A stretch of DNA of 64,000 nt from an uncultured Lachnospiraceae bacterium. Lineage in GTDB: Bacteria > Bacillota > Clostridia > Lachnospirales > Lachnospiraceae. Each line of letters starts with the position of its first letter. Positions within the stretch are counted from its first letter, which is position 1. The stretch spans positions 911 through 64,910 of the forward strand of contig CAJUAE010000009.1 in the NCBI GenBank assembly GCA_910583965.1, in the 5' to 3' direction. Position numbers and translations under genes: made by a program. Below the pieces are notes generated by a model. It saw only the letters and a list, made by a program, of their open reading frames with translations, did no database searches and was not told where the DNA came from. Shown here piece after piece: positions 4,025 through 55,735 of the stretch.

Positions 4025-5761
4025 ATGAAAAGCTTGTTAAAGTACATAAAAGACTACAAAAAGGAAAGCATTCTAGCACCTTTATTTAAGATGTTGGAGG
4101 CTTCTTTTGAATTGATGGTGCCACTTGTTATGGCGGCAATTATTGACAATGGTATTGCCAACAGTGATACGCCCTATATTTTTCAGATGGGGGCGGTGTT
4201 GGTGCTACTGGCAGCAGTTGGTCTTGCCAGTTCCGTCACAGCGCAGTATTTTAGCGCAAAGGCAGCAGTTGGATTTGCCACAAAGCTTCGGAGTGCTTTG
4301 TTTGCACATATACAAGGATTGTCTTACACAGAACTTGACACTATTGGAACCAGCACATTAATCACGCGTATGACAAGCGATGTAAATCAGATTCAGAATG
4401 GTGTGAATTTAACGTTGCGTCTGCTATTGCGCTCGCCATTTATTGTGTTTGGTGCAATGGTGATGGCATTCACTGTGGATGTGCAGGCAGCACTTATTTT
4501 TGTGGTGACAATTCCGCTGCTTGCAGTTGTTGTGTTTGGGATTATGCTTGTCAGTATGCCACTATATAAAAAGGTACAAGCAGCGCTTGATAAAATTCTT
4601 GGTAGAACACGTGAAAATCTAGCAGGTGCCCGTGTTATTCGTGCATTTTGTAATGAGGAGTCAGAGACAGCAGATTTTGAGCAGGAAAATGAACTTCTAC
4701 TCAACACACAAGTTTTTGTCGGCAAGATTTCTGCCGCAATGAACCCTGTGACTTATATTATTATTAATCTTGCACTTGTGATTCTTCTGTGGACTGGAGC
4801 TATACGCGTGGACAATGGTATTATCACACAAGGAGAGGTGGTTGCACTAGTAAACTATATGTCGCAGATTTTGGTAGAACTTGTCAAGATGGCAAATCTT
4901 ATTATACAGCTCACCAAAGCACTTGCCTGTGCAAAGCGCGTTGAAAATATCTTTGGGATTACATCTAGCATGGAAAATGGCACATTGCAAGATGTCATAA
5001 GTGGTGAGAATGCAGCAATTGTTTTTGAACATGCAAGCCTCACTTATAGTGGTGGCGGTGATGAATCCCTGACGGATATTGACTTTGTTGTAAAAAAAGG
5101 CGAGACCGTCGGCATTATTGGCGGTACTGGTTCTGGTAAGACTTCAGTAGTGAATTTAATTCCGCGCTTTTATGATGCTACGAAAGGGCGCGTGATTGTA
5201 GATGGGATTCCAGTCAAAGACTATGAGATTTCCACGCTGCGAGAAAAAATCGGTGTTGTTCCGCAGAAGGCAGTTTTGTTTAAAGGAACCATTCGAGAGA
5301 ATCTTTTGTGGGGAAATGAAAATGCATCCGAGCAGGATATTGAGGATGCACTGCGTATTTCGCAGGCGAAAGAGTTTGTTGATACCAAGGATGGCAGACT
5401 TGATTTTATGATTGCGCAAGGCGGCAAAAATCTTTCTGGTGGTCAGAAACAGCGTCTTACAATTGCGCGCGCCATTGTGAGAAAACCAGAGATATTGATT
5501 CTTGACGACAGTGCTTCGGCGCTTGATTTTGCCACGGATGCAAAGCTTCGCGCGGCAGTGAAAGAGATGGGGAATCAGATGACTGTTATTATTGTGTCGC
5601 AGCGCGCAGCATCGATACAATATGCTGATAAAATTGTTGTGTTGGATGATGGTGCAGTGGCAGGAATTGGTACACACGAACAGTTGCTTGCGGACAATGT
5701 AATTTATCAGGAAATCTATTATTCTCAATTTCCAGATAAAAAAGCAAAAGCTGCGGAATAA
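4025..5761 (+). CDS. ABC exporter half-transporter (TMD-NBD), subunit with degenerate ATP site
   Basis: Six predicted TM helices followed by an NBD: Walker A GGTGSGKTS, signature LSGGQKQR, Walker B ILILDD (Asp where the catalytic Glu normally follows). RBS GGGGGA. Confidence 0.93.
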   Translation: MKSLLKYIKDYKKESILAPLFKMLEASFELMVPLVMAAIIDNGIANSDTPYIFQMGAVLVLLAAVGLASSVTAQYFSAKAAVGFATKLRSALFAHIQGLSYTELDTIGTSTLITRMTSDVNQIQNGVNLTLRLLLRSPFIVFGAMVMAFTVDVQAALIFVVTIPLLAVVVFGIMLVSMPLYKKVQAALDKILGRTRENLAGARVIRAFCNEESETADFEQENELLLNTQVFVGKISAAMNPVTYIIINLALVILLWTGAIRVDNGIITQGEVVALVNYMSQILVELVKMANLIIQLTKALACAKRVENIFGITSSMENGTLQDVISGENAAIVFEHASLTYSGGGDESLTDIDFVVKKGETVGIIGGTGSGKTSVVNLIPRFYDATKGRVIVDGIPVKDYEISTLREKIGVVPQKAVLFKGTIRENLLWGNENASEQDIEDALRISQAKEFVDTKDGRLDFMIAQGGKNLSGGQKQRLTIARAIVRKPEILILDDSASALDFATDAKLRAAVKEMGNQMTVIIVSQRAASIQYADKIVVLDDGAVAGIGTHEQLLADNVIYQEIYYSQFPDKKAKAAE

Positions 5762-5762
5762 T

Positions 5763-5901
5763 AGTTATAATTTAGCCTCGGGACTTTGTATTTACTGCAA
5801 AGTCCGTGAAATAACGTAGTAGTTGAGATGCATCAAGCCACCACGAAGTGGTTTTGCATGGCTTGATGCTTGTAACAGGAAGCCGAAGGCTGAACTGTTA
5901 C
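5763..5901 (+). repeat. three-hairpin miniature element, copy B1, flanked by 7-bp direct repeat GAATAAT
   Basis: H1 5781-5805, H2 5830-5869 (nested CCAC-GAA-GTGG), H3 5872-5901. GAATAAT occurs at 5756-5762 and 5902-5908. Same architecture as 29930-30062. Confidence 0.7.
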
Positions 5902-5927
5902 GAATAATGGATGCGGAGGGGATAAAG

Positions 5928-28078: not shown

Positions 28079-28287
28079 ATGATACCAGGGTCAAAAGGTC
28101 AAGAAATCCGATGCAAGCTTGCTTGCAAGAGGATTTTTGAACTTGGGACCCGCAAAAACACCGAAAAGTAGCCATTTTTCACAGAAAAATGAGCGAATTT
28201 GAGGTGTTTTAGGATTGCGGGAGCATGAAATGCGGAGCAATCCGTGGTATCATAAAAGGTAAAATACCTTTTTGCCCCTGGTATCAT
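28079..28287. mobile_element. 209-bp MITE with ~20-bp terminal inverted repeats
   Basis: ATGATACCAGGGTCAAAAGGT at the left end; the reverse complement of the right end is ATGATACCAGGGGCAAAAAGGT. Internal palindrome GCAAGCTTGC. A partial copy lies at 7717-7793. Confidence 0.75.
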
Positions 28288-29606: not shown

Positions 29607-29929
29607 TTTGATAACCTATCCTTTCCAATTTAATATTCCTTAGGAACTGTAGAAAAATTACTGATACATCTTGACTTGTCTATTTCTCCGATTATACATG
29701 TCAAAAGCCTTTCCATAGCCGCTGTGACTACGCTTTTTGACATATCTCCTCGAAGAAATATACTGCGTAATTTGTATTATTTATTTTCTTACAATTCCTT
29801 AAAACTGCAAAACCTCATATTAATTTATCACAAAACCGCAAAAAAATAAAGTCTTTGCGATTTAATTCACAAACATTTCTTACTTTAGGAATTGCGATAC
29901 TTGCGACAGATGAAATCTGCTGTGAGTAT

Positions 29930-30062
29930 GTTACTGTTCAGACAGGACTTAGCATCTACTGCTAAGTCCGTGAGAAAACGTACTGGTTGTAAGAAAAAAT
30001 CCATTTGCGAAGCAAATTTTGCATGGATTTTTACCTGTTACTGGAACGGAGTGAACAGTAAC
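29930..30062 (+). repeat. three-hairpin miniature element, copy B2, flanked by 8-bp direct repeat GTGAGTAT
   Basis: H1 29945-29969, H2 29995-30032 (nested TTGC-GAA-GCAA), H3 30037-30062. Termini GTTACTGTTCA / TGAACAGTAAC are inverted repeats. GTGAGTAT at 29922-29929 and 30063-30070. Confidence 0.7.
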
Positions 30063-30100
30063 GTGAGTATCACGCCTTCCTGAATTGTGATTCTTTATTC

Positions 30101-30130
30101 TTGACAAGAATAGACGATTCAGACTATACT
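30101..30130 (+). promoter_or_regulatory. SigA-type promoter TTGACA-18-TATACT
   Basis: TTGACA 30101-30106 and TATACT 30125-30130, about 40 nt upstream of ATG 30172. Confidence 0.5.
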
Positions 30131-30171
30131 GTAATTGAGCAATCATAGAAAGAAAGGAGCATGGATGCAGT

Positions 30172-55366: not shown

Positions 55367-55735
55367 AGAGCACCCAAATGAAATTTGTCAGCAGAAGCTG
55401 ATGGGTGTCCGGCGCGTGAGTAGGGAAAAGAAGTCTTATTTGGTGTGCATCAATTGTAACAAAATCGTTACTTTTCACACCCGCGTCATGCACTTGCTGT
55501 ATGGTGTCGGATCCAGCGCCAAAATGCTTGTTTTTAGGCATTGTGTGTGCATCCATTGTTGCAATTCATACCGAATGTTCGTAAATCGGTGCAAAATCTG
55601 ACGTTGGTGTGAATTGTAACACAAAATCAGTTCCACAATTAATGTTACTAAGAAGCATTATTGAAAAATTACAGTTTATAGTTTATAGTAAAAGCGAGTA
55701 GATAGTTCCGAATTGTATAGAGACGAGGATAAACA

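Follow-up and report, generated by a model that had tools for sequence, protein, structure and literature searches.

The window considered here, the whole 64,000-nucleotide stretch of DNA that was analysed, comes from an uncultured Lachnospiraceae bacterium (assembly GCA_910583965.1, contig CAJUAE010000009.1, positions 911 to 64,910 of the forward strand). Between a divergently transcribed gene for an FKBP-type protein and a 142-aa gene of unknown function lies the element B2, a sequence of 133 bp at 29930-30062 (+) that ends in 11-bp terminal inverted repeats (TIRs), folds into three hairpins (H1 to H3) and is bounded by an 8-bp direct repeat. In our judgement B2 is most probably a copy of a 133-145-bp superfamily of non-autonomous DNA transposons of the Lachnospiraceae, that is, of MITEs (miniature transposable elements with inverted repeats), with ends of the type found in the ISBst12 group of IS66-family insertion sequences (ISs). 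Its parts are as follows:

29922-29929: left target-site duplication of B2, GTGAGTAT, identical to 30063-30070
29930-30062 (+): MITE copy B2, subfamily B, 133 bp; full-length covariance-model match, 146 bits
29930-29940 (+): left TIR of B2, GTTACTGTTCA, the reverse complement of TGAACAGTAAC
29945-29969 (+): hairpin H1, GGACTTAGC (29945-29953) with GCTAAGTCC (29961-29969), 7-nt loop
29970-29994 (+): unpaired conserved linker GTGAGAAAACGTA, then a variable spacer; linker columns invariant in 51 copies
29995-30032 (+): hairpin H2, with outer stem, inner stem and the 3'-side bulge ATTTTGC
29995-30004 with 30023-30032: outer stem of H2, AAAAATCCAT with ATGGATTTTT
30005-30015: inner stem of H2, TTGC-GAA-GCAA, in which a C-GAA-G triloop caps TTGC/GCAA
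30038-30062 (+): hairpin H3, GTTACTG (30038-30044) with CAGTAAC (30056-30062)
30052-30062: right TIR of B2, TGAACAGTAAC, the reverse complement of GTTACTGTTCA
30063-30070: right target-site duplication, GTGAGTAT, completing a perfect 8-bp direct repeat

H3 consists of the right TIR paired with an internal copy of the left terminus, and this internal copy co-varies with both termini between subfamilies. The right arm of H3 can instead pair with the left TIR, as it does in the minimum-free-energy fold. A preliminary description of this locus, made by eye from the letters, had reported the three hairpins, the flanking GTGAGTAT repeats and the inverted ends, together with a second, similar element (B1) that differs in its stems and shares the linkers; all of these sequence statements proved accurate. 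Both elements fold far beyond dinucleotide shuffles of their own sequences (z = -6.0 and -5.75), and near-identical copies of B2 are present in many Lachnospiraceae genomes.

The identity of B2 as a MITE follows from its terminal inverted repeats and 8-bp duplication, and from the multi-copy, intergenic and nested occurrence of its relatives. One genome per species was scanned for an exact pattern, which occurred at 61 loci, all from Lachnospiraceae and many from the same genome, with at least 14 from Mediterraneibacter agrestimuris DSM 111629 alone. A looser pattern matched at least 120 metagenome contigs, and prophage contigs also carry a few copies. When a profile was searched against all fetched DNA (individual fetched loci are labelled with L-numbers below), it gave 228 matches, 139 of which are unique full-length insertions, and clustering at 85% identity resolved 25 subfamilies. 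Up to about 16 near-identical copies were sampled in one genome. Members of the superfamily measure 133-154 bp, have no coding capacity, differ between subfamilies by insertions and deletions (indels), and carry TIRs of 11-14 bp in all subfamilies; only seven of the 139 copies lie inside long open reading frames (ORFs). Searches with the three elements of the window found no match in a plasmid collection and four weak phage-contig matches in a phage collection.

Evidence for mobility comes from the flanks. Repeats of 8 bp with at most one mismatch border 92 of the 139 unique insertions, 53 of them perfectly, against no pair with fewer than two mismatches in a control shifted by 20 bases; the first set of copies had given 36 of 55. 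The terminal inverted repeats and 8-bp direct repeat seen at B2 in the preliminary description are thus real and general. The duplicated 8-mers have no consensus. Moreover, copies are found inserted into other copies (L017, L026, L050). At L029, once a B-type insert is taken out together with one repeat CACAAGGC, what is left is an element of 154 bp, and its alignment with window positions 55467-55620 runs over the full length of both; this is the equivalent of a comparison between a filled and an empty site. The preliminary description had read the element as a selected fold; its structural conservation stood, but its primary identity had been left open, and this is defined by the repeats and inverted ends. 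This is accordingly a new MITE family of a known element kind, not a new class of RNA gene. The literature that we searched contained no description of this family or of any ISBst12-derived MITE, and thus no already described MITE family to which the element would belong; the text of one large MITE survey makes no mention of Lachnospiraceae (PMC11602168).

B2 is not alone in the window. The linker AAGTCCGTGANANAACGTA occurs there exactly twice, against 0.01 occurrences expected by chance, and the second site defines B1, which has the three hairpins and the conserved linkers in common with B2. A third element is a more distant relative. These other copies are:

5756-5763 and 5902-5909: 8-bp repeat flanking B1, GAATAATA and GAATAATG
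5764-5901 (+): MITE copy B1, subfamily A, 138 bp; covariance-model match, 126 bits
55459-55466 and 55621-55628: perfect 8-bp duplication ACAAAATC around the third element
55467-55620: third, distant superfamily member, 154 bp, with ends GTTACTTTTCACACC ... GGTGTGAATTGTAAC

Of two ABC-exporter genes, the first has B1 inserted precisely at its stop codon, and the ribosome-binding site of the second is left intact. The third element has diverged too far for the covariance model, and it keeps the H1 loop core TGCA-CTTGC-TG(C/T)A. Neither the 8-bp repeat around B1, nor the third relative, nor the compensation in more than 160 copies set out below was part of the preliminary description.

Several smaller observations concern the family as a whole. 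Minimal elements of 29-35 bp, made of two termini and a short loop only, were seen at L019 6721-6755, L006 4541-4572, L017 7350-7381 and 2566-2596, and L043 1796-1824; some have an 8-bp repeat of their own, and since the L019 stub is flanked by the perfect 8-bp repeat GGGACAGT, such stubs may themselves transpose. In four UBA3401 contigs (L020, L031, L041, L048) runs of N start inside MITE copies, so that the scaffolds of this metagenome-assembled genome (MAG) are gapped at the repeats, and several metagenome contigs end inside copies (e.g., L080, L082, L087, L094); the family breaks assemblies.

Between its termini the element has an architecture that is common to all subfamilies: left TIR, H1, unpaired linker, H2 and H3. 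The linker consensus GTCCGT(G/A)(A/G)GAA... is kept across subfamilies, as is the plan of H2, with an outer stem of 10-11 bp, an inner stem of 4-6 bp and a conserved 3'-side bulge, in RNA letters (U)UUNNAAU/CAU. The preliminary description had argued from two copies that structure rather than sequence is conserved and had proposed a covariance-model search of genomes and metagenomes. Such a model, made from 51 copies, recovered 88 in the genome loci and 76 in the metagenome loci, and covariation is strong in both of these independent sets. Standard pairs make up 97.4% of stem cells in the genome set and 97.7% in the metagenome set; changes on both sides are seen in 28 and 25 of the 33 pairs, respectively; and the covariation score is 0.40 and 0.39, compared with 0.11-0.12 for column shuffles and 0.03-0.05 when partners are slid by 1-3 columns. 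Two-sided changes affect 7 of the 10 pairs of H1 in the genome set, and in H2 they affect 10 of 11 outer and 4 of 5 inner pairs in the genome set and 11 of 11 and 5 of 5 in the metagenome set. These figures come from alignments fitted to the model and from copies that are related, and in the metagenome set H1 was fixed by the search pattern. The raw sequences hold the same compensation. H1 appears as GGACTT(A/T/C)GCA with TGC(T/A/G)AAGTCC, or as GGTCTGTGCA with TGCACAGACC; the inner stem of H2 as TTTGC/GCAAA, TCACC/GGTGA, CCAC/GTGG or TCGC/GCGA; and the outer stem as AAAAATCCAT, GCATCAAGCCA, GAATCCGCCCT and others, each with its own complement. The inner loop of H2 is C-GAA-G in 55 of 76 copies, and GCA, GGA and GTA also occur (C-GNA-G triloops).

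Compensatory changes have thus maintained the pairing of H1, H2 and H3 in about 25 subfamilies and more than 160 copies. For H3, which contains the terminal sequence, the compensation could be a by-product of co-evolution between transposase and TIRs. H1 and H2, however, vary among copies with identical termini, and therefore their compensation is not such a by-product. In its overall construction the MITE looks like a left terminus, followed by the H1-linker-H2 module, followed by a minimal element of two termini.

The ends point to a transposase family. The family TIR consensus GT(A/T)AC(A/T)(G/A)TTCAG matches the ends of ISBst12-group ISs, and individual MITE ends read GTAACAGTTCAGCC (type A) or GTAACTATTCAGCC. 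Type A begins with GTAACAG; in type B the right end carries GTAAC, with GTTACTG as its inward reading. IS66-family elements have ends starting GTAA and make 8-bp direct repeats (PMC11946415), and the combination seen here therefore pointed to IS66. Within that family ISDge4, of the ISBst12 group, has the TIRs GTGACTACTCAGCA / GTAACTGCTCAGCA and an 8-bp direct repeat (PMC12898284), and these TIRs are identical to MITE ends at 11-12 of 14 positions. ISGka4, on the Geobacillus kaustophilus plasmid pHTA426, encodes a single 485-aa transposase between a left end GTAACTATTCAGCC and a right end GGCTGAATAGATAC, with AACTCGTC on both sides as its 8-bp repeat; its left end is identical at 14 of 14 positions to L138-type copies and at 12 of 14 to type A. 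Relatives of the ISGka4 transposase on metagenome and prophage contigs have the same ends and perfect 8-bp direct repeats. The Lachnospiraceae isolate Anaerostipes sp. 494a carries an ISBst12-type IS of 1.8 kb (GTAACTATTCAGCACCCC ... CCTGAATAGATAC), and this IS was found at three different sites in the isolate and its relatives, each with its own perfect 8-bp repeat. ISBst12-group elements are thus present and recently active in the Lachnospiraceae.

The ISBst12 group (ISBst12, ISGka4, ISDge4) and the MITEs share the termini GTAAC(N)3TCAGCC and an 8-bp target duplication, and at the family level the assignment of the MITE termini is well supported. The differences are equally plain: members of the group are single-ORF DDE insertion sequences, whereas the elements of the window are 133-154 bp long, have no transposase and carry a hairpin module not found in the ISBst12-type ISs examined; the left end of subfamily B, unlike those of the group, starts GTTAC. 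Canonical three-ORF IS66 elements were considered as the parent and rejected, as their ends on human-gut contigs (GTAAGCG) do not match the MITE ends. Two observations on related ISs may be recorded here. An ISGka4-like IS at L213 1160-3054, with a left end GTAACTGTTCAGCC that is identical at 13 of 14 positions to MITE type A, carries in its 5' untranslated region an extra ~270-bp insert with many long hairpins. In some ISBst12-type ISs (L214 1419-1460, L222 1220-1256) the inner half of the left terminus recurs in inverted form after that terminus (TATTCAGC ... GCTGAATA), and the resulting terminal hairpin is reminiscent of H3 of the MITE.

How such elements might move and persist can be outlined as follows. 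The MITE would be moved in trans by an ISBst12-type single-ORF DDE transposase, which would make staggered cuts 8 bp apart at the target; the cognate gene, a single ORF with a DDE_Tnp_IS66 domain, would be expected between ends GTAACAGTTCAG or GTTACTGTTCAG with 8-bp repeats. Less certainly, the fold would be selected on one strand, usually the sense strand of the neighbouring genes. The most likely reason for this would be that read-through transcripts fold into a compact, self-contained structure, which would allow an insertion to occupy the gap from a stop codon to the following ribosome-binding site with the operon unharmed, and which might also stabilise the mRNA.

The surroundings of the copies bear on this picture. 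Between co-directional genes, sense copies outnumber antisense copies by 57:21 (p = 6e-5), and the median distance of sense copies is 41 nt from the stop codon upstream and 90 nt from the start codon downstream; a further 35 copies are in divergent regions and four in convergent ones. In 68 of 86 copies the strand that folds coincides with the locus's G-rich strand, which is the usual coding strand and also the lagging-strand template. At sites where the flanking genes give no orientation, the bias to the locus-wide strand was weak, 18:7 in a first set and 14:8 in a larger one. Mismatches in the stems are G:T more often than A:C, by 52:28 and 35:14 in the two alignments (pooled 87:42, p ~1e-4 by normal approximation), an excess that points to the folding of one particular strand. 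Around B2 itself, strong sigma-70-like sites (TTGACA-16/18-TATACT, 11 of 12 matches) were seen at 29737-29764 and 30101-30130 (+). The former, 165 nt upstream of B2, could drive a transcript through the element; the latter lies downstream of it, in front of the 142-aa gene.

Several points weigh against the interpretation of B2 as an ISBst12-mobilised MITE with a fold selected in read-through RNA. A co-occurring transposase, to which the preliminary description had looked, did not appear: none with these ends was found in the window or in the ~1.5 Mb around the copies, and the same ends occur on ISBst12-type ISs in other Firmicutes and in the Lachnospiraceae member Anaerostipes. Because of this, the proposed ISBst12 link rests on the identity of the termini and the length of the duplication. 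Pairs of TIRs at most 4-6 kb apart with an 8-bp repeat were found at chance level only, with poor TIRs and no transposase; no multi-copy ORFs were found in the fetched loci; left ends that continue into non-MITE sequence were all truncated copies next to ordinary genes; and neither a regular expression for the IS66 TnpC motif nor tblastn with the E. coli IS66 TnpC and the ISGka4 transposase gave a match in the 1.5 Mb. The hairpin module, furthermore, was absent when 35 loci with ISBst12-type or IS66 elements were searched by nhmmer with the MITE profile, and since the IS elements examined lack it, they do not account for its origin. B1 and B2 are fixed in all conspecific contigs read, with no empty site for either copy, and two contigs with a different upstream context proved to be rearranged rather than empty; being present in every such contig, B1 and B2 are old, fixed insertions. 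Lastly, in these genomes replication direction is a confounder of the orientation bias, with few discordant cases, and the G:T excess could come from strand-biased cytosine deamination or from the fitting of the alignment to the model.

Two single cases are noted for completeness. At L177 2151-3104 (-), a 317-aa ORF without a Pfam match, seen once in the 1.5 Mb, is bordered by a MITE's truncated left part on one side and by a terminal-repeat hairpin on the other, and has no duplication at its flanks. At L133, a gene of the UPF0236 (PF06782) family, a family annotated as ISLre2-type transposase, is situated 162 nt downstream of a MITE copy at 5163-5305 (-).

The main alternative to read-through RNA as the reason for the fold is that the hairpins act as single-stranded DNA during replication or transposition, with the folded ends (H3, H1) or the module recognised by the transposase or a host factor. 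We regard this as a minority possibility. Compensation between subfamilies means that master copies kept their pairing, for which a requirement in propagation would be the simplest reason. The inner loops of H2 are overwhelmingly C-GNA-G triloops, which are characteristic of stable DNA mini-hairpins and are not typical of stable RNA loops; B2 holds GCGAAGC, a DNA mini-hairpin of exceptional stability. The placement of the folding strand on the lagging-strand template in 68 of 86 copies agrees with such a role, but this strand bias is confounded with gene orientation, and the residual bias at divergent and convergent sites, 18:7 at first, fell to only 14:8 in the larger set. The inverted repeats and target duplications of IS66-family elements are typical of double-strand DDE transposition, for which we know of no hairpin requirement in that family, and since the ISBst12-like ISs examined lack the module, their transposase does not need it in cis.

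A somewhat less probable proposal, cast more broadly, is that the H1-linker-H2 module, far from being carried passively, has a function as a structured nucleic acid and was captured with an additional left terminus on one side and a minimal ISBst12-type element on the other. The module might be an RNA active in its own right, for instance as a processing or stability element or as a site bound by a protein of the host or the transposon, or else a single-stranded DNA fold needed by the transposition machinery. If the module is functional in either form, it would be a self-spreading, transposon-borne structured RNA or DNA module whose stems have co-evolved in about 25 lineages.

That the module is, more specifically, a functional non-coding RNA, a cis-regulator or small RNA spread by transposon ends, seems unlikely to us. 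Its appeal lies in the strong covariation, in the conservation of unpaired nucleotides (the linker GUCCGU(G/A)(A/G)GAA and the H2 bulge), in the absence of the module from parental-type ISs, and in the fact that downstream of 79% of intergenic copies there is a gene on the same strand, at a median distance of 90 nt. These downstream genes, however, are functionally unrelated: across nine sampled genes and the neighbours in the window they include aconitase-family, NUDIX, signal peptidase II, GNAT, DegT aminotransferase and ABC exporter genes and genes for proteins of unknown function. As the genes downstream of sense copies fall into no common functional class, a riboswitch or other gene-specific cis-regulator is ruled out. 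The element has no promoter or terminator of its own, and an intrinsic-terminator or promoter cassette was likewise rejected, with no promoter-like (-35/-10 hexamers) or terminator-like (G+C-rich hairpin and T run) sites inside B1 or B2. The promoter-like site at 30101-30130 means that B2 may be outside the mRNA of its downstream gene. Transposition alone, moreover, explains the copy number and the target duplications.

The preliminary description had been unable to place the element in a known RNA family, and Rfam offers no match against which to revise that statement. At gathering thresholds, the whole window and 12 loci gave no match on the elements, the only matches being Clostridiales-1 RNA and signal recognition particle (SRP) RNA (L017), and in E-value mode around B2 there was no match on the elements even at E = 10. 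A search for tRNA or tmRNA found none. The Clostridiales-1 RNA (RF01699) in the window is a full-length match at 28080-28252 (+), with 124 bits where the gathering score is 48; its position is 1.7 kb upstream of B2, flanked by a leucine-rich-repeat (LRR) protein gene and the FKBP-type gene, and it is unrelated to the MITE. Rfam families such as this one share with the MITE a covarying, conserved secondary structure in Clostridia; the difference is that no model matches B1, B2 or the other subfamilies.

Derivation from, or mobilisation by, an IS256-family transposase, whose members also make 8-9-bp duplications, is very improbable. In some subfamilies the sequence after H1, AAAGTCCGTAAGAATGTGTG, agrees at 16 of 20 positions with the IS256 terminal repeat GATAAAGTCCGTATAATTGTG, an end sequence confirmed from published primers (PMC4207318). 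The match occurs in the type-C linker, for instance just downstream of 5916 in L026 and in L019 4445-4586 (-). It lies 35-45 nt inside the element rather than at the ends defined by the duplications, no inverted counterpart of it stands at the opposite end, the real termini agree exactly with those of the ISBst12 group, and the similarity was noticed post hoc. Where the linker is IS256-like, H1 resembles two IS256 ends abutted, which may be chance. Finally, there is a negligible probability that two palindromes between genes resemble each other by chance, or that a small protein is encoded here (two ORFs overlap B2, one of 63 aa at 29892-30083 (+) and one of 65 aa at 29949-30146 (-)). Both readings are refuted by what is seen in the family: more than 200 related copies whose ends are defined, a motif count far above chance, and subfamily indels and paired substitutions that preserve stems and not reading frames.

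Set among known systems, the MITE family also resembles structured intergenic repeats and MITEs described in other bacteria. ERIC in enterobacteria, BOX and RUP in pneumococcus and the Correia elements of Neisseria are short, non-coding, multi-copy sequences with stable stem-loops at transcribed intergenic sites, and for some of them a biased orientation and substitutions that preserve structure have been reported. They differ from the family described here in sequence, host and transposase family, with Correia elements and RUP using TA duplications. They also form one long palindrome, whereas the present MITE has three local hairpins and a terminal-repeat hairpin. REP/BIME sequences and the palindromic elements derived from IS200/IS605 share with the MITE hairpin-forming repeats and a strand bias relative to replication, and their mobility depends on folded single-stranded DNA. 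An element of the REP or IS200/IS605 type was rejected as an explanation; those lack TIRs and target duplications, and the elements here have both.

With the MITE identity thus preferred, copies occupy hundreds of intergenic regions of abundant gut Lachnospiraceae, where they fragment assemblies, can be mistaken for structured RNA genes in comparative screens and part the genes of operons by ~140 nt. Through them a large non-autonomous family is tied to a transposase group that has been little studied (ISBst12/IS66). The unusual feature of this family is a structured internal module, kept by compensatory changes and not native to the presumed parent. As such, its dozens of compensated-stem subfamilies represent a natural experiment on why a mobile element keeps folds that its presumed parent lacks, and, if the fold is necessary for mobility or for the behaviour of mRNA, the family would provide a tractable model of structure-dependent transposon biology in the Firmicutes.

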